DNA of 64,000 bases from Bacteroidaceae bacterium (GTDB lineage Bacteria > Bacteroidota > Bacteroidia > Bacteroidales > Barnesiellaceae_A): the NCBI GenBank assembly GCA_017531985.1, contig JAFXJY010000013.1, positions 7,601 through 71,600 of the forward strand, read 5' to 3'. Shown piece after piece: positions 5,169 through 59,414 of the stretch (position 1 is its first letter; each line of letters starts with the position of its first letter). Made by a program: the position numbers and the translations under genes. The notes beneath the pieces were generated by a model, which did not search any database, was not told where the DNA came from, and saw nothing but the letters and a program-made list of their open reading frames with translations.

Positions 5169-8100
5169 TCCTGCTCCTCCTTTACATCTTGCTCCTCAGT
5201 CGGTATCGCATTTATTACCCCATCGGTCGGTTGCGATGGTCTGTTTTCTTCTTTGGTCATAGGTCGCTTACGGAATAAGTCTAATAGCGATCCCACCTGT
5301 TTGCGATAAAGAAATCCGGCACCGGTCTGCGTAATTTCTCCCTCTATTATGCTTTCGTAGCCGGTCTGACGAAATACCTTTATATACATATTATCACGCT
5401 TGGTAAGACGATATTCCAACGATATATCATCAATCAAATTTTCTTTAAGATTTTGTGTTACATCCTGATTGGATGCATAACTACCTCCTACAACAACCTT
5501 CAACCTATTATCCAACAAGCTCTTAGAAAACTGATAGGAATAGTCGGTGCGTTGTGTTCCTGTACCATCGATACCATAATTATCTATTCCGAACGTAAGA
5601 TCGACACCGCGAAGAGTTCGTTGAGCCCAAGTATTCAACTCATATTCAAGAAACGTATTCAGCGGGTTATTTATCAACGAATTTTCGGCTGCCGAGGCTA
5701 AATTGTCGTATGAATTATACAAGAACATGTTCATTGCCTTCACCTCACGTTGTTCGGCCGTAAGACCCTGCAATTCGTTCTCAATAACAAGATCATCGGT
5801 GGTGGCAAGGTCAAAGGATATATCCATGTCCTTCAACGTATTAGATATCATAATGGAGACATCAAAGTCGACCAATCGCGAATCCTCTCCACTCTTCACC
5901 GTCGACCTCTGCGACTGTACTGCCTTAATGTTGAATGTTGGGTCGGCAATATTACCATTCCATGACACATAGCTGCCATCTTCGATATTAAATATCTTCT
6001 GTGAAATAAACGGTGGGGTATATCGCACAAATCCGCCTGTAAGCGTATAACGACCTGTCATCCGATTATCGCCCATAGCTGTCGAGGTGTACAACAGATT
6101 ACCACCACCCACCAAGTCGATACGATTACTTCCATCGAGTGAGAGATTAACACCAAGTTGTACGCCCTGATCTATGTCTATATCTACATTGGCCACCAAG
6201 TTGGCTCGACGTTGAGTATCCGACTCGGTATCAAGCATAGAGGTTGTATCGGAGAAAGTTACAAAACTTACCATTTCGGAATAATCGGTACTCGACAACG
6301 AACGATTACTCTGCATGACATAAGTGGCATTGGTACCCGACAGCAATGAAACATTGCCACTTACATTCAGATTGGCAAGTGTACCTCTCACCCGGGCATC
6401 CACATCTGTGTAGACTGTGCCATATATGATACCGGTACGATTTTCTGCTATATGAATAGGCTGAAAATTCCGAGCTTTAAAATCGAGGTTTATACCCACA
6501 TTGGTCAAACGTGAAAAGTCAATCACACCATCTATATTCAACGGTACATTGTTGGCACCTCTTATACCATATTGTAAAAAGGAGAGGCGACTATTCTTGA
6601 CAGGTATCTCGGTATTGTCAAGTGTAAGTGTGGCTCCTATCTTATCAAATGAGGTTGTTGCATCATCAAATCTTATAAAACCATTAATCGTCGGAGATGA
6701 CAGATGACCGGTAAGTGAGAGACGGCTATTCAGTTCTCCTGAAAATTTACCCATGTCATGGGGGAAAAATGCATTGGCTGCCTCTAACGGAAATTCGCTG
6801 ATAGTAATACTACCATTAATGCCGGGAGTCGGTTGTTGGTCGAGATATGCTACTACATCCAGCACATTATTTCCATCACGCAAGAGTGTTGCCCTTATAT
6901 TGTTTCCTCCTCGTGGCTCGATACTATAATCGACATCGGCATGAAATGTACCCACACGTCGATTATTGTACACATAGTCTATTACATCGAGCGTACCCGC
7001 AGCCTCTACGCCCTCCTCGGGCATATCAATATATACATTGGCCGACAGCAGTCCCGACATAGGTGTAACCAATGGCGACACCACAACCCAGTCGGCTATT
7101 TTAATATCTTGCATATCGATGTGTACTCCGTCGACATCTTTGTTGCGACGTTCCTCTGTCGAAACATATATGTGACTGTTTTCATACGACAATCGCACAT
7201 CGGCCAGTATGTCTCGTTGAGAATGAACATAAGTGAGAAAATTATCACTATTAAGCATCCATCGCTTATATCCAATGATGGGTTCCTGTGGTCCAAAAGT
7301 CAACCTGACTGTATCGGACTTAAAATCGACCTTACATCCAAACAAAAAACCGACATCGTCCTTGCGATTGCGTTGCAGGCAATACAATCTCGTGCTATTG
7401 CCCGATAGAAAACCTTCGACTCGCACATGAGCAAATTCATCCATGTTGCCGGGTCGATTAATCATAGCCAGACTATAATTCAACCTTGCATCCTTTTCAT
7501 GTGCATCAAACGTAATGGTATCCATCAACAAGCCCGATACCTCCATCCGATGTACATACGATGATATATTGAAAAGGGTATCATTCGACACATTACACTT
7601 TACATTGCCCACTCGGATGCCTATACTATTGAGATACTGTTGCAGAATATTATTACCGCTCAATCCTGCTGTAAACTCAAATGGCGGCAGTCCATGATGC
7701 AACTCATCCATGTTGAGACGCTGTTTCTGGAATATTGTATCGACAAACTGTGTGAGACGCTCCATGCCGGGTCGCAATTGTGTCAAGCCCACATCCGACG
7801 ACAGATTGACATCCATGTCGCCTGTACGCAGGTCAAGATAACTATATGTAATATCACTGGCCGCAATCAGTGTGATAGGTTGTGCATAGTAACGATGTTC
7901 ACCTATCCCCAGTAACAGGTCGTTTATCTCCACATCGGCTTGAACAATACTATCGATATTGGATAATACAACCTCGGCAACAATCTGCCCCGACACATCG
8001 AAAGGCTGTCGCATGAAATGCATGGCTGCCAAGTCGAGCTTTCCTATATTCCCATTAAGCCTCATCGACAAAAAATCCTTTTGATACTCACCATGCATCG

Positions 8101-19004: not shown

Positions 19005-19106
19005 AACTTAGTTTTTTGTATTCAATATAAGAACAGACCCGGTATATATTTTGTTTACTACTCGCATGCCTTGGTAGCTGTTTTGGCTGTTTACAAAAAA
19101 TGTAAT

Positions 19107-19114
19107 ACCTTTGC
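19107..19114 (+). promoter_or_regulatory. -7 promoter box (TACCTTTG)
   Basis: Matches TAnnTTTG, 19 nt upstream of the ATG at 19133. Confidence 0.5.
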
Positions 19115-35899: not shown

Positions 35900-35904
35900 C
35901 TTCG

Positions 35905-35978
35905 CTCTTCAGGTTGGACTTGAACCAACGACCCTCTGATTAACAGTCAGATGCTCTAACCGACTGAGCTACTGAAGA
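35905..35978 (-). tRNA. tRNA-Asn (anticodon GTT), copy 1
   Basis: 74-nt cloverleaf on the minus strand: TCTTCAG acceptor, anticodon loop CTGTTAA and T loop TTCAAGT. Confidence 0.9.
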
Positions 35979-36000
35979 ATAAATACTATTAAGAAACTGG

Positions 36001-36074
36001 CTCTTCAGGTTGGACTTGAACCAACGACCCTCTGATTAACAGTCAGATGCTCTAACCGACTGAGCTACTGAAGA
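36001..36074 (-). tRNA. tRNA-Asn (anticodon GTT), copy 2
   Basis: Identical in sequence to copy 1 and separated from it by a 22-nt spacer. Confidence 0.9.
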
Positions 36075-38084: not shown

Positions 38085-38147
38085 AAGGACGTGCGTTTTT
38101 ATTGACATTTTCGTCCTAAAAAATTTGGCAGATAATAAATAAGTTTA

Positions 38148-38155
38148 TACATTTG
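38148..38155 (+). promoter_or_regulatory. -7 promoter box (TACATTTG) upstream of the PadR operon
   Basis: Matches TAnnTTTG, about 50 nt upstream of the ATG at 38207. Confidence 0.5.
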
Positions 38156-44259: not shown

Positions 44260-44431
44260 TTTCGGCGGCGAAATAATCCACCCCAAACACTCCTTAAAGA
44301 GTAGGAATAGTATTATATCGTTGCAAAGTAATGTATAAAGAGGTGATAAGGTTGGTGCATCGGCACATTATTTTTAGGTAATTATATACAATTCTACACT
44401 AAATAAATTTGTGTTTGTGTAAAATTCTTCT

Positions 44432-44439
44432 TATCTTTG
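44432..44439 (+). promoter_or_regulatory. -7 promoter box (TATCTTTG)
   Basis: Matches TAnnTTTG, 22 nt upstream of the ATG at 44461. Confidence 0.5.
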
Positions 44440-44460
44440 TTCTATAAATAAGAAAGAACG

Positions 44461-45378
44461 ATGATAACAAAGAAATTCAAATCCGTTTTAGAACTATTTG
44501 AGGTATTCTCAACAGAACAAGCCTGTATAGACCATTTGGAACAATTACGTTGGAATGGCAACGTGGTAAGTCCATTTGATTGTACTTCAAAAGTCTATAA
44601 GTGCAAAGATAATAAATATCGTTGTAAAAACACAGGAAAATACTTTAATGTTAAGACAAATACTTTATTTGATAATACTAAAATCCCGTTGCGTAAGTGG
44701 TTTGCTGCTATATGGCTTGTAACTTGTCATAAAAAGGGTGTTTCTTCTCTTCAATTAAGCAGAGATATTGATGTTACACAAAAAACAGCTTGGTTTATGC
44801 TACAACGTATTCGCAACTGTTTCGGCATCGAGAATAATAACGACCTAACTAATACCGTTGAACTTGATGAAACGTATGTTGGTGGCAAGAATAAAAATCG
44901 ACACAACAATAAGAAAATAGAAAATTCACAAGGACGTAGCACAAAGGATAAAACACCCGTATTCGGTATGGTTGAACGAAAGGGTAAACTTAATGCAAAG
45001 GTCGTTACCGATACCAAATGCGAAACCCTAACAAAAGAAACCATCAAATTTGTAAAGGATGCTTTGATTTGCACTGATGAATGGTGGGTTTATAATTCCA
45101 TTAAAAAACTATTCAAACGACACGAGATTGTAAATCATAAGTGTAACGAATATGTGCGTGGCGATGTTTACACCAATACTATCGAAGGTTTTTGGTCGTT
45201 GCTAAAACGTGGTATTATAGGTATATACTATTTTACCTCTAAACAACACTTGCAACGCTATGTTGATGAGTTTGTTTTTAGGTACAATACTCGCAACTAT
45301 TCCGAATGTGGAAGATTTAATTTACTTTTGCAAAATACTGAACATCGTCTAACATATAAAGAATTGATATATGGATAA
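44461..45378 (+). CDS. IS1595-family (ISXO2-like) DDE transposase
   Basis: FSTEQACIDHLEQLRWNG..., IPLRKWFAAIW, ELDETYVGGK, CTDEWWVY and NTIEGFWSLLKR are the family blocks, and the DDE residues appear present. Confidence 0.82.
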   Translation: MITKKFKSVLELFEVFSTEQACIDHLEQLRWNGNVVSPFDCTSKVYKCKDNKYRCKNTGKYFNVKTNTLFDNTKIPLRKWFAAIWLVTCHKKGVSSLQLSRDIDVTQKTAWFMLQRIRNCFGIENNNDLTNTVELDETYVGGKNKNRHNNKKIENSQGRSTKDKTPVFGMVERKGKLNAKVVTDTKCETLTKETIKFVKDALICTDEWWVYNSIKKLFKRHEIVNHKCNEYVRGDVYTNTIEGFWSLLKRGIIGIYYFTSKQHLQRYVDEFVFRYNTRNYSECGRFNLLLQNTEHRLTYKELIYG

Positions 45379-46504
45379 CTATTTGGAAAAATCTCAAAAT
45401 TTCCTATTCTACTCGGATAATGACGGAAAAATAAATGTGCAAGTGATTGTGGATAGTGCTAAAGAAACTATTTGGACTACACAAAAGGGTATGGCAGAAA
45501 TATTTGGTGTAGGTATTCCTGCTATTAGTAAGCATCTATCTAATATTTTCGAGGAGAAAGAACTGCTTGAAAATTCAGTTATTTCCAAAATGGAAACAAC
45601 TGCGACAGACGGGAAAAAATATATAACTACATTCTACACCCTTGATGCCATAATTGCTGTTGGTTATCGTGTAAATAGTTATCAAGCAACCCAATTTAGA
45701 ATATGGGCAACACGCATATTAAAGGAGTATATGATAAAAGGTTTTGCATTAGATGACGACAGATTAAAGCAAGGCAAACATTTATTTGGTAAAGATTTTT
45801 TCAAAGAACTTATTGAACGAATCCAAGAAATTCGTGCTTCAGAAAGAATGTTCTATGAAAAAATTACTGATATATTCAAAGATTGTAGTATTGACTATGA
45901 CCCCAATTCACCAATTGCAAAAGAATTTTATGCTTCAATGCAAAATAAATTTCATTATGCTTCCCACCAACATACTGCACCTGAAATTATATATGAACGT
46001 GCGGATTCCACAAAACCATATATGGGATTAACAAGTTGGAAAAATCAAAAAAGTGGAGGAAAAATTTATAAATCAGATGTAACAATAGCCAAGAACTATT
46101 TAAAAGAAGATGAAATAAAGGCGTTAAATAAACTCGTAAATATGTTTCTTGACCATGCAGAACGATTAGCTGAAAAAGGGAAAGGGACTTACACTATGGC
46201 TGATTGGGTAAAAAGATTAGATATGTTCTTAAACTTTAACGAATATCCTATTCTTACAAATGCTGGTAAAGTGAAACGTGATGTTGCAAATCGATTCGCT
46301 GAATCCGAATATAAGAAGTTTAGAGTAATACAAGATAGGGAATATAAATCAGATTTCAACAAATTAATCGAAGCCAGCCATAACGGGTTACCCAATGAAT
46401 GCGATAAGAATGATGGAAGCAACTTATCACCTTTAGACCAATCACTAAACATAGCCCTTAACTACAACCCAAACAAAGATAAAAACCAAGAGCCGACTGA
46501 ATAA
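45371..46504 (+). CDS. RhuM-family protein
   Basis: DGKINVQV....ETIWTTQKGMAEIFGV, YTLDAIIAVGYRVNS.QATQFRIWATRILKEY and IQEIRASERMFYEKITDIF are characteristic RhuM blocks. It overlaps the transposase stop by 8 nt. Confidence 0.82.
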   Translation: MDNYLEKSQNFLFYSDNDGKINVQVIVDSAKETIWTTQKGMAEIFGVGIPAISKHLSNIFEEKELLENSVISKMETTATDGKKYITTFYTLDAIIAVGYRVNSYQATQFRIWATRILKEYMIKGFALDDDRLKQGKHLFGKDFFKELIERIQEIRASERMFYEKITDIFKDCSIDYDPNSPIAKEFYASMQNKFHYASHQHTAPEIIYERADSTKPYMGLTSWKNQKSGGKIYKSDVTIAKNYLKEDEIKALNKLVNMFLDHAERLAEKGKGTYTMADWVKRLDMFLNFNEYPILTNAGKVKRDVANRFAESEYKKFRVIQDREYKSDFNKLIEASHNGLPNECDKNDGSNLSPLDQSLNIALNYNPNKDKNQEPTE

Positions 46505-46516
46505 ATCGGCTCTTGG
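46486..46516. terminator. Bidirectional terminator spanning the rhuM stop codon
   Basis: CCAAGAGCCGA / TCGGCTCTTGG form a perfect 11-bp stem. An A5 run precedes it on the plus strand, which reads as a T-run on the minus strand. Confidence 0.7.
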
Positions 46517-46543
46517 TACATAATACGATTAAGTATTTTTGTT

Positions 46544-46912
46544 TTACTCAAAGTCATAATCTTTTTCTAATAAGGCACTTTGATAACGAGCATTTTTAAC
46601 AAGGGTTCTATATCCTTTTATGATTGGTAGCAAAATAAGGTTTTCTATTGCTACAACTAATGATACTATAAAGATAATAGGAATTACGTCGTTATATGGT
46701 TCAACAAAAGCACCTACAAAAGTTACAAATGCTAATATTAAACTTATAATACTAAACACAAAGCATAATTTAGATAGTATGGTTAAACCATATATACCCG
46801 AACCATCGTAATTAACTTTGATTTTTTCTTTAGTACCATCAATGTTTTTTTGACTTTCTTTCTCACTCATAATAGTTTGTTCTTCTTTGTTTGTAAATAC
46901 ATCTTGTTCCAT
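46544..46912 (-). CDS. Small membrane protein with two TM helices, family unknown
   Basis: The ATG at 46912 (MEQDVF...) avoids overlap with the upstream gene. The two hydrophobic helices are LCFVFSIISLILAFVTFVGAF and IPIIFIVSLVVAIENLILLPII. The alternative track start is 46957. Confidence 0.5.
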   Translation of the reverse strand: MEQDVFTNKEEQTIMSEKESQKNIDGTKEKIKVNYDGSGIYGLTILSKLCFVFSIISLILAFVTFVGAFVEPYNDVIPIIFIVSLVVAIENLILLPIIKGYRTLVKNARYQSALLEKDYDFE

Positions 46913-46922
46913 AATAATAATT

Positions 46923-47255
46923 TTAATCCCAACCGTTTTCATTGAAATATTCGTCAATCATATCTAAGTCTCTTTTTTGTTCTTGTGAACCTTGATAGTG
47001 TATTTGTTTATCTCCTTCAGGAGATGTATAGCCACCACCTTGCATATATTCCCTTCTCGCATTTCTTTCTATATCTGCTGCACCATCCATACCTGCGTCA
47101 CGTAAATTTTGTTCTCTATCGATAGATTCCCAATAGTTCTCATCTTCAACATATCTTGAAGAAGAACTACTATAATTGCTATCGCAACTAATACAAGAAT
47201 TAAAGGAAATGCAACACAAAATGGCTACACTAGCTGACAGTAAAATTTTTTGCAT
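46923..47255 (-). CDS. Small lipoprotein, family unknown
   Basis: The ATG at 47255 gives MQKILLSASVAILCCISFNSC, a signal peptide with a lipobox. The longer track ORF would run through a hairpin followed by a T-run at 47315-47342. Confidence 0.5.
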   Translation of the reverse strand: MQKILLSASVAILCCISFNSCISCDSNYSSSSSRYVEDENYWESIDREQNLRDAGMDGAADIERNARREYMQGGGYTSPEGDKQIHYQGSQEQKRDLDMIDEYFNENGWD

Positions 47256-47313
47256 AATAATTTGTTTTATAGTTTGTGCAATATTGCCTTTGTTTGTTGT
47301 GGCAGTAACTACA

Positions 47314-47513
47314 CAAAAAAACGTAGGGCTACTACCGTACGTCATCAAGGCTCACCACAAGCCAACCTACAAACGGAGTGTCCCTACGAATATCGCAGGT
47401 ACTCAACAGTAGGTATTATGCTCGTGTTCATTCGAGGTGGTGATTCTGATGACGTTGAGCAAATATTTTCAAAAGGTCTGCAATAGAGCTTCGCTTATTG
47501 CGTTGCAAATATA
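47314..47513 (-). promoter_or_regulatory. Candidate structured leader or attenuator (or an sRNA of about 185 nt) upstream of the lipoprotein operon
   Basis: On the minus strand there is a -7 box TATATTTG (47506-47513) and a hairpin followed by U7 (47315-47342). The upstream heptamer CGUAGGG (47382-47388) is perfectly complementary to the hairpin's 3' arm. A 9-bp long-range pairing links 47339-47347 with 47447-47455. Confidence 0.35.
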
Positions 47514-47515
47514 GC
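47496..47515 (+). repeat. Direct repeat copy 1 flanking the PanA cassette
   Basis: The sequence is TATTGCGTTGCAAATATAGC. Confidence 0.55.
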
Positions 47516-47577
47516 ACAAATTATTAAACCAAAGTGTTAAAATATAGTCCAAGTTTTGTATGTATATATTTAGTTAG

Positions 47578-47585
47578 TACTTTTG
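47578..47585 (+). promoter_or_regulatory. -7 promoter box (TACTTTTG)
   Basis: Matches TAnnTTTG, 21 nt upstream of the ATG at 47606. Confidence 0.5.
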
Positions 47586-47605
47586 TGTATTAAAATAATG
47601 TGTAT

Positions 47606-48124
47606 ATGAAAACTAATTTGGGAATAAATGACATAGCAGATTTTGTGTTATTATACTGCTTTGAAAACGAAATTTCAATAAGTCCATTGAAATTACAGAA
47701 GTTATTGTATTATATACAGGCTTGGCATTTAGTGTACTTTGATAAACAATTATTGTTTGAAGAAAAGCCCCAAGCTTGGGTAAATGGTCCCGTATATCCA
47801 ACTATATATAATAGATTTAAGGGTATATTAAGATATTCCGAGTTAAACAAAGAAAATACCGGTTTGTCATCAACAACATTAGAGGATAAACAGCAAATAT
47901 TGGATTTAGACAAAGAACAATATGAGTTTTTAGACTCAATATTCCATCACTATGGTATGATGGAACACGATAGACTTGTTTTTTTGACACACGCAGAATT
48001 ACCTTGGAGTGAAAAACGGGATGGGCTAATGCCTTTTGAGCCATCCGATAACGAAATTTCATTTGAAACGATGTTTAATTATTACAATCAAAGAATGATT
48101 AAAAACAGGGAAAAGAAACAATGA
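47606..48124 (+). CDS. Panacea/DUF4065 (SocA/GepA-like) domain protein, putative PanA-type antitoxin
   Basis: The motifs are SPLKLQKLLYYIQAWHLVYFDKQLLFEEKPQAWVNGPVYPTIYNRF and, later, LTHAELPWSE. The track start at 47600 is GTG, so I prefer the ATG at 47606. Confidence 0.8.
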   Translation: MKTNLGINDIADFVLLYCFENEISISPLKLQKLLYYIQAWHLVYFDKQLLFEEKPQAWVNGPVYPTIYNRFKGILRYSELNKENTGLSSTTLEDKQQILDLDKEQYEFLDSIFHHYGMMEHDRLVFLTHAELPWSEKRDGLMPFEPSDNEISFETMFNYYNQRMIKNREKKQ

Positions 48125-48642
48125 GTTTTGGTGGAATCGACTATGATGCAGATGAGTTAAATGAATTGCATCGCAGATATGAAATAGGAGATAGAATCAT
48201 TAATAATGACATTTATATATCAAAAACAATATCACCAGTAATATGCTATAGCCATATAGATTTATCAGGAAGCGAATATTCATTTAATAAAGTTGAATTT
48301 AAGGAAGATGTCTGTTTATATTTAGAAAAGATTAAGGCTTTGTGCGACAATTCTATTGATGAATTATCAAGTAAAGACTCAAAAAGAGAATGGCATTTGT
48401 TTCCAACCAGAGGGAAAAAAATTATAACTGAATTAAAAAGACATTTTAACGTCAAAAAAATAGACCAAGATAGAGTTCCCGAAATTTATCATTTTGCATT
48501 ATATACAGACCAAGATAAAGCTGATAAAGAAACGGGGAAACGTTCTCCAAGAATACATTTTATTGTGGGAAATCATGGTATGCTATACCCTCTATTCTAC
48601 GACCCATACCACGAAATAAATTCTATGCCAGAAAACAGGTAG
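48121..48642 (+). CDS. Unknown 173-aa protein coupled to the Panacea gene, candidate toxin
   Basis: Its ATG overlaps the upstream stop (ATGA). It has no TM helix or signal peptide, and I recognise no family. Confidence 0.5.
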   Translation: MSFGGIDYDADELNELHRRYEIGDRIINNDIYISKTISPVICYSHIDLSGSEYSFNKVEFKEDVCLYLEKIKALCDNSIDELSSKDSKREWHLFPTRGKKIITELKRHFNVKKIDQDRVPEIYHFALYTDQDKADKETGKRSPRIHFIVGNHGMLYPLFYDPYHEINSMPENR

Positions 48643-48645
48643 TTG

Positions 48646-48666
48646 TATTGCGTTAGCAAACATAGC
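48646..48666 (+). repeat. Direct repeat copy 2 flanking the PanA cassette
   Basis: TATTGCGTTAGCAAACATAGC differs from copy 1 by a 1-nt indel and one substitution. Confidence 0.55.
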
Positions 48667-48701
48667 CTCTGTGTAAACTCGTATATAATTACCTGTTTTT
48701 A

Positions 48702-49616: not shown

Positions 49617-49624
49617 CAAATGTA
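49617..49624 (-). promoter_or_regulatory. -7 promoter box (TACATTTG on the minus strand) upstream of nadK
   Basis: The plus strand reads CAAATGTA, about 46 nt upstream of the ATG. Confidence 0.5.
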
Positions 49625-49698
49625 GATGTTTTCCCTCAAACATCAAATATAGGCAATATTTTTTTGAATAATAGAGCCGAATTTTACAAAAGTCGTTG

Positions 49699-56380: not shown

Positions 56381-56388
56381 CAAAGGTA
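56381..56388 (-). promoter_or_regulatory. -7 promoter box (TACCTTTG on the minus strand) upstream of the ferredoxin gene
   Basis: The plus strand reads CAAAGGTA, 47 nt upstream of the ATG. Confidence 0.55.
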
Positions 56389-56437
56389 AGATACTTTTTT
56401 GCTTCTACAAAATAAATAGTCGTATTTTTACACAGAA

Positions 56438-59335: not shown

Positions 59336-59414
59336 GATTATCTCTGTTTACTACCACAAATATAAAATGAATCCATTTATGATGCAAATAAAACTATGAT
59401 TTTTATATAGGTAG

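Follow-up and report, generated by a model that had tools for sequence, protein, structure and literature searches.

A Panacea antitoxin-type gene and its predicted cluster T1 partner are carried by an IS1595-family element in a Bacteroidaceae bacterium

We have analysed a stretch of 64,000 nucleotides (nt) from a Bacteroidaceae bacterium (GenBank assembly GCA_017531985.1, contig JAFXJY010000013.1, positions 7,601 to 71,600), hereafter called the window, with the focus on two overlapping genes, panA and panT, whose coordinates are collected in Table 1. A previous reading of this DNA, made from the sequence alone (the sequence-only reading), had described the two open reading frames (ORFs), quoted peptide strings from them, and reported that the stop of the first overlaps the ATG of the second. 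Both ORFs and all of the strings are present in the translations, and the overlap is indeed found as ATGA at 48121-48124, where the TGA stop of panA shares bases with the ATG of panT (-4 overlap). The start of panA is the ATG at 47606, and an in-frame GTG is also present at 47600. In front of the pair lies a promoter-like site that exactly matches the Bacteroidota consensus TTTG-N19-TAnnTTTG and ends 21 nt before the panA ATG, which makes it a candidate promoter. The sequence-only reading had attributed a promoter of its own to the pair because of a -7 box at 47578, and the full promoter-like consensus is located there. This consensus is enriched in the window, with 7 sites against 1.38 expected, and 0 shuffles reached 7. 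No intrinsic terminator was found downstream of panT.

Judged by its sequence, the product of panA is a Panacea antitoxin-type protein. The Pfam model PF13274 (SocA_Panacea) matches residues 30-134 with 72.6 bits (gathering cutoff 25.7, E=6.5e-20), so the DUF4065/Panacea identity proposed in the sequence-only reading holds and there is no profile mismatch to set against it. In addition, PanA matches PHROG 1281 (E=6.5e-35), and it is without an N-terminal helix-turn-helix (HTH) or PAD1 domain. The NCBIfam model SocA_antitoxin aligns to residues 10-135 at 65 bits, which is under its equivalog cutoff of 190. Thus PanA shares the Panacea domain with the founding DUF4065 antitoxin of SocAB, the type VI toxin-antitoxin (TA) system of Caulobacter, but it differs from SocA by this low score (65 vs 190 bits); furthermore, PanT is unrelated to SocB, and an action as ClpXP adaptor has no support here.

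To see how the two genes are inherited, we have surveyed one genome per GTDB species and scored the resulting 59 loci with hidden Markov models (HMMs). The loci come nearly all from Bacteroidales (Muribaculaceae, Prevotella, Bacteroidaceae, and Rikenellaceae), together with one from Mucilaginibacter. Members of the PanT family were also observed in metagenome-assembled genomes (MAGs) labelled Paenibacillus, Lachnospiraceae, and Flexilinea (L041, L042, L047, and L051 in our survey); these labels outside Bacteroidota probably reflect binning contamination or recent transfer. Intact pairs are present at 50 of the 59 loci, always in the order PanA then partner and on the same strand, with gaps that are mostly -4 and in some cases -1, -8, -11, or +2. 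Wherever the sequence in front of an intact partner is available, PanA is the gene immediately before it. At 4 loci (L053, L064, L065, L066) an intact PanA stands beside a truncated or frameshifted partner, at another 4 (L028, L061, L063, L067) both genes are degraded, and 1 locus is cut by a contig edge, while an intact partner without PanA occurs at none of the 59. The sequence-only reading had suggested searching for co-occurrence of the homologues with DUF4065 genes, and these counts, with 50 intact pairs and no partner-only locus, are in favour of it. This one-sided decay, 4:0, has the polarity that would be predicted if the partner is harmful without PanA, though it rests on four events, a small number.

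The two proteins also diverge together. The pairwise distances of PanA and of the partner correlate with a Mantel r of 0.85 (n=51 pairs), and 0 of 2000 permutations were as high. Across six unrelated genomic contexts, among them the portal, tail, and RecT regions of prophages, a polysaccharide locus, and islets flanked by IS1595, only the PanA-partner pair is constant; the flanking genes differ, and there is no conserved operon longer than three genes around the pair. The Panacea match above the gathering cutoff, this lack of a longer operon, and the reciprocal pairing of the partner's relatives with PanA are features by which Kurata et al. 2022 recognise PanAT loci. Since the pair stays constant while its neighbours differ entirely between lineages, it should be an autonomous mobile two-gene module. 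Overall, PanA and its partner almost certainly form a real cognate module.

The partner itself is not recognised by domain libraries. PanT gives 0 matches in Pfam, NCBIfam, and PHROGs, and only a chance-level match in PADLOC (E=0.014); a Pfam scan of all 43 aligned family members yields no domain, a PDB sequence search with the single protein is also empty, and a tblastn search against 50,697 phage records returns nothing. No transmembrane segment is found, the maximum 19-residue Kyte-Doolittle hydropathy being 0.75. These results agree with the sequence-only reading, which had seen neither a transmembrane helix nor a nameable motif in the second protein. On the other hand, the family is substantial, with homologues in 45 clusters of a 5.8-billion-protein set and, in a profile search of 1.84 billion representatives, 218 sequences at E<1e-3, all of ~160-175 amino acids (aa) and unannotated. 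The conserved residues of the family are H92, H124-F-A-L-Y, P143-R144, and D161-P-Y-H-E165, and the N half has its own conserved motifs (Y43, F55, Q57, F60, D63, and Y67). The C-terminal signature reads SPRIYF-x-G-x-NG-x-IYPLFFDPYHEINP, also written SPRIYF-x-G-x-NG-x-IYPLFFDPYH. The isoelectric point (pI) of the whole protein is 5.9 (family median 5.3), with 4.4 for the N half (residues 1-87; median 4.5) and 9.4 for the C half (residues 88-173; median 9.2). This contrast in charge, acidic for the N half of PanT and basic for its C half, is kept across the family.

As for the classification, the sequence comparisons place the window PanT in a published predicted cluster of PanTs, T1, and not in a new family. 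Dataset S1 of Kurata et al. 2022 lists for Prevotella falsenii DSM 22864 a PanA (WP_036885121.1) with a PanT (WP_024998564.1) in cluster T1, in the order A|T with a gap of 2 (PMC8832971). By exact-sequence look-up, WP_024998564.1 is the partner at the P. falsenii locus of our survey (L043), where the gap is likewise 2 nt, and this partner matches the PanT family HMM at 8e-55. A second T1 member, YP_006560566.1 of Salmonella phage vB_SemP_Emek (L081:15152-15637), has relatives in 180 clusters from Proteobacteria, Acidobacteria, and Cyanobacteria. The PanT family aligns to this Emek family in hhalign with 95.7% probability (E=1e-8) over 109 columns, covering residues 33-168 of the window protein; therefore the window PanT represents a Bacteroidales branch of T1. 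The sequence-only reading had taken the second protein as a new PanA-associated toxin of an undescribed family, and this claim is not sustained, because WP_024998564.1 was already listed in T1 and the profile homology to Emek is high.

In the table of Kurata et al., T1 is large, spans several phyla, and consists of 'hypothetical proteins' to which no domain is consistently assigned (PMC8832971). We sought an HHpred assignment for T1 in their dataset and found only scattered CDD entries (UBA_like, FGAM_synt, DUF2400) and no RelE-type text. The window pair resembles the published T1 pairs in having a stand-alone Panacea protein first and an overlapping, domain-less downstream partner of ~140-175 aa. 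Its branch differs from the Emek branch in that it is centred on Bacteroidales, its proteins exceed those of Emek type by ~30 aa, and they carry a distinct C-terminal signature, the C-terminus of the Emek branch being MVGYR...VLWxDRxFxLYxH. Among 164 sequences of the T1 superfamily, Asp161 is invariant (100%), F125 is conserved in 90%, and P143 in 89%. We have also observed that the annotated T1 gene of Emek (L081:14764-15637 region) starts at a TTG and overlaps PanA by 62 nt. Comparison with its relatives suggests that the real start is an ATG 22 codons further down, giving a protein of 139 aa; if it was the longer version that had been cloned, this may bear on the 'not toxic' outcome in the literature.

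The sequence-only reading did not mention the element in which the pair resides. Both genes are carried within an IS1595-family element of 4.3 kb and low GC content at 44376-48694, situated between the genes of shikimate kinase and NAD kinase. The GC content drops from ~45% to ~32% across exactly 44.3-48.7 kb, and the positions of two terminal inverted repeats coincide with this drop. The identical 14-nt tips of the repeats, AGGTAATTATATAC, occur in the window only at these two ends, with 0.03 expected. Inside the repeats, a DDE transposase gene is followed by a RhuM-family gene, which is probably co-transcribed with the transposase because it overlaps the transposase stop by 8 nt; on related contigs, the RhuM gene is split in L068 (149 + 218 aa) and shortened in L082 (342 aa). 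Two small ORFs on the opposite strand, whose gene calls were taken from identical contigs (L069, offset 45120), have no Pfam match. The one of 122 aa has a hydrophobic C half and the one of 110 aa has a lipoprotein-like N-terminus (...SFNSC); analogous lipoprotein ORFs lie upstream of PanA in L016 and L010.

Table 1 Features of the panA-panT locus, of the element that carries it, and of further promoter-consensus matches in the window (+, forward strand; -, reverse strand).
Feature	Coordinates	Strand	Description
panA	47606-48124	+	172-aa acidic protein (pI 5.25) of antitoxin type, stand-alone Panacea (DUF4065)
panT	48121-48642	+	173-aa partner, from the Bacteroidales branch of the predicted PanT cluster T1
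Promoter-like site of the pair (candidate)	47555-47585	+	-33 TTTG at 47555-47558, 19-nt spacer, -7 TACTTTTG at 47578-47585
Left terminal inverted repeat	44376-44399	+	24 nt, AGGTAATTATATACAATTCTACAC, 88% complementary to 48671-48694
Right terminal inverted repeat	48671-48694	-	29 nt past the PanT stop, 8 nt before the NAD kinase stop
IS1595-family DDE transposase	44461-45378	+	305 aa; PF12762 146 bits; NF033547 205 bits vs cutoff 75
RhuM-family passenger	45371-46504	+	PF13310 341 bits; PADLOC candidate defence family PDC-S05, E=8.5e-140
Two small passenger ORFs	46544-47348	-	called at 46544-46912 (122 aa) and 46923-47255 (110 aa)
Further promoter-consensus matches (TTTG-N18-22-TAnnTTTG)	19082-19113, 38124-38155, 44408-44439		exact
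Further promoter-consensus matches (TTTG-N18-22-TAnnTTTG)	49617-49647, 56381-56411, 59357-59388	-	exact

With a transposase, inverted repeats, and passengers, the element fits the IS1595-family 'transporter IS' (Siguier et al. 2009, as cited in PMC3129680). Its association with the pair is seen elsewhere, as IS1595 transposases adjoin the pair in L010, L016, L045, L060, L061, and L075. The L016 locus has related tips at 2002-2015 and 5732-5745, and between them lie the lipoprotein ORFs, PanA, PanT, and the transposase, the cargo being inverted compared with the window; in L075, the inverted repeats are unconvincing. Several observations qualify the reading of the window element as a transposon. 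Target-site duplications in the IS1595 family are of 8 bp, and the flanks of the element, TTATTTTT and GTTTTTAT, show no clean one. An empty site is absent among 24 contigs with an identical NAD kinase, as all 24 carry the islet, and a second copy was not found, a search of metagenomes with the left repeat giving one unrelated 25-nt match. TA pairs are known inside Tn3-family transposons (Lima-Mendez et al. 2020, PMC7157771), and in the literature searched we have found no report of TA pairs inside IS1595 elements. The window element is comparable to the Tn3 transposons with TA passengers, and to the transporter IS, in that a TA-type pair lies within terminal inverted repeats beside a transposase and other passengers. 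It differs from the Tn3 cases in that the element is of the IS1595 family, the TA pair is PanAT, and its mobility is putative, with neither target duplication nor empty site. Such carriage, seen in the window branch, is not described for T1 in Kurata et al. 2022.

We have also noticed a ~23-nt near-repeat, TTATTGCGTT(A)GCAAA(T/C)ATAGC, which flanks only the PanAT cassette (47495-47517 and 48645-48667); to the left of the element, at 44313-44327, there is a third copy, weaker and partial. A TAnnTTTG box is contained in the reverse complement of the near-repeat. As a cassette-flanking direct repeat it was rejected, being not above chance at two edits and without consistent recurrence in the other loci.

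For the possible activity of PanT, we have turned to predicted structures. AlphaFold2 (AF2) with the family alignment gives a single-domain alpha/beta model with a mean confidence (pLDDT) of 89.4 and a predicted template-modelling score (pTM) of 0.85. The predicted helices cover residues 10-16, 28-36, 58-76, 79-85, and 99-108, and the strands 122-126, 144-149, and 154-161 plus two short bridges. A second, independent AF2 model was made for a member with 39% identity (P0022, pLDDT 90.4). When both were compared with 350,542 PDB chains in Foldseek, the HigB toxin of S. pneumoniae, 6af4_C, ranked first for both of them (E=0.17 and 0.57). For the two models together, the template-modelling (TM) scores are 0.43-0.47 and the probability is at most 0.47. 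The window model matched the 6af4 chains C, G, and A; these chains are the toxins, not the HTH antitoxins (PMC7984235). The list of the window model also contains V. cholerae HigB2 (5jaa_D) and M. tuberculosis ParE1 (8c24_B), and the list of the P0022 model contains HigB2 and two ParE entries. Hence the resemblance of the predicted fold to HigB is reproducible across two models, yet it is below significance.

We have also compared the C-termini. The hairpin R-I-x-F...G-x-x-G...D-(P)-Y-H of PanT resembles WRITFQFINGDAYILNYEDYH of P. vulgaris HigB (comparison sequence verified against 4mct_B), and the family signature aligns with NWRITFQFINGDAYILNYEDYH of the same protein. In hhalign, R144, D161, Y163, and H164 of PanT are paired with R73, D90, Y91, and H92 of HigB, in a marginal alignment that is not clearly above shuffled profiles. 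Three of these HigB residues, D90, Y91, and H92, belong to those on which its activity critically depends (PMC5027501). Compared with HigB, YoeB, and RelE, PanT is alike in its predicted alpha/beta architecture of helices followed by an antiparallel sheet, in its basic C half (pI 9.4; 8.0-8.9 for HigB), and in the position of its gene after the antitoxin gene. It differs in its length (173 aa vs the usual 85-120 aa), in its acidic N half, and in its antitoxin, which is Panacea and not HigA, RelB, or YefM.

Other observations weigh against this relationship. Neither model has a PDB match at E<0.001 in Foldseek or a TM score reaching 0.5, and the window model has none at E<0.001 among the viral predicted structures (BFVD). 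For PanT against HigB, hhalign gives P=0.065-0.17, the alignment of the motif being at 0.065-0.081. Column-shuffled HigB profiles equal the score in 6 of 150 cases when the whole profile is used, and in 31 of 150 when it is the C-terminal one. The merged profile of the T1 superfamily does no better against HigB, the Emek family against HigB gives nothing, and searches of the PDB sequences with the full family, C-terminal, and Emek-family profiles are empty. At E up to 5, the Pfam/NCBIfam models of RelE, HigB (PF05015), ParE, YoeB, YafQ, and Gp49 match neither the window protein nor any other of the 43 members. The Emek branch conserves neither Y163 nor H164, and D161 is the one residue universal across T1. 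Moreover, PanT is acidic overall and nearly twice the size of a RelE-type toxin, and thus is not a small basic protein. Since the HigB score is not robust to column shuffling, does not improve with the merged T1 profile, and has no counterpart in the Emek family, we have not classed PanT as a member of the RelE/ParE superfamily. The sequence-only reading had seen a faint RelE/ParE resemblance in the C-terminus and had proposed a structure search; HigB and ParE toxins do top the PDB lists, HigB being first for both models, but none of these matches is significant and the motif is not clearly above the shuffles. That PanT is an RNase of a RelE/HigB-like fold is accordingly our leading but tentative idea, to which we give somewhat less than an even chance.

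In published work, stand-alone Panacea antitoxins neutralise by direct binding to the toxin, a sensor function of the domain being considered possible (PMC10440598), and PanAT pairs act in the manner of type II systems (PMC8832971). On this background, we can outline how the window pair may work. The single promoter at 47555-47585 would transcribe both genes, and the ATGA overlap would couple the translation of panA and panT. By analogy with the published stand-alone PanAs, PanA would bind PanT and keep it inactive. When PanA is lost, titrated, or triggered, e.g., by phage infection or by loss of the element, free PanT would arrest growth. Its activity would most likely be RNA cleavage leading to a translation block, by means of an alpha/beta core, located in the basic C half, with a distant likeness to RelE/HigB, and the active site may consist of the invariant Asp161 with His92, Arg144, Tyr163, and His164. 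The role of the pair may be retention of the element, phage defence, or both. The combined reading, namely that PanA-PanT is a TA-type module of cluster T1 carried as IS1595 cargo, with PanT most likely an RNase that blocks translation, seems to us about evenly balanced between right and wrong, while the narrower proposition that the partner inhibits growth in its native host is probably correct.

The pair could be a genuine PanAT pair in which the fold and chemistry of the T1 toxin are unrelated to RelE/HigB, PanT being a different kind of nuclease, an enzyme that modifies nucleotides or proteins, or an inhibitor that acts stoichiometrically, and the likeness to HigB being convergent or due to chance. 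The non-significance of all structure matches, the failure of the HigB profile link to beat the shuffled controls, the universality of Asp161 alone, and the larger size of PanT with a conserved acidic N half and motifs of its own are all consistent with it, and a wide variety of unrelated folds is known among PanTs (PMC8832971). On the other side, toxins of the same RelE superfamily are the best PDB matches for two independent models, the conserved His, Arg, Asp, and Tyr together with the basic C half would suit an RNase, and all three tested T1 members carry the predicted label 'mRNase' (Kurata et al., PMC8832971 SI Table S1). We therefore consider unrelated chemistry rather unlikely, but to be taken seriously. 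A more far-reaching version is that T1, the largest PanA-partnered cluster and one with no assigned domain, embodies a new fold or chemistry built on the universal aspartate and is not a RelE relative, that the acidic N half is regulatory or target-mimicking, and that the cassette, serving addiction or defence, has been repeatedly captured by IS1595 transposons for their own retention; this we regard as unlikely.

It may also be that the partner does not arrest growth at all, and that the pair is a non-toxic accessory module, e.g., a Panacea 'sensor' with an effector that acts only against an invader, or a maintenance or regulatory pair of phages and transposons. Three T1 members, none of them from the Bacteroidales branch, have been tried in E. 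coli: that of C. cadaveris was toxic, and those of an E. coli MOD1 prophage and of phage Emek were not (PMC8832971). The toxic one was not rescued by its own PanA, which, together with the two harmless members, counts against our combined reading. The lack of toxicity in two of three agrees with a non-toxic module, as do the 8 of 25 tested PanTs that were non-toxic overall, the proposal that Panacea is mainly a sensor (PMC10440598), and the frequent location of the pair among prophage genes, like a moron. Nevertheless, one T1 member is toxic, and host mismatch in E. coli may explain the non-toxic ones according to the authors (PMC8832971). Furthermore, the partner was lost four times with PanA intact and the reverse never happened, and the pair has a classic type II layout with the antitoxin first, a 4-bp overlap, and strict co-inheritance. 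A non-toxic partner is thus improbable in our view, more so than the alternatives of unrelated chemistry. As for a fortuitous adjacency, or a 173-aa ORF that is not a gene, this is effectively refuted by the 218 representative homologues, the confident single-domain models (pLDDT 89-90), the presence of PanA upstream of all intact copies, and the co-evolution of the two proteins (r=0.85).

Apart from the pair, the six additional promoter-consensus sites may help to annotate transcription units in the window; two of them, at 44408-44439 and 49617-49647 (-), immediately precede the starts of the transposase and of the NAD kinase, respectively. The window also contains two tandem genes of tRNA-Asn(GTT) at 35904-36074 (-), 20 nt apart.

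The pair opens no new class of system, and what is new here is its carriage as cargo of an IS1595-family element. If PanT is toxic, T1, which among the toxin clusters partnered with Panacea is the most widespread and the least understood, would gain a branch from Bacteroidales, and D161, H92, R144, Y163, and H164 are the candidate residues for mutation. In gut Bacteroidales, the pair travels on prophages and inside IS1595-family elements. This is relevant to the persistence of prophages and small transposons in bacteria of the gut, which may also defend their hosts against phage in this way.

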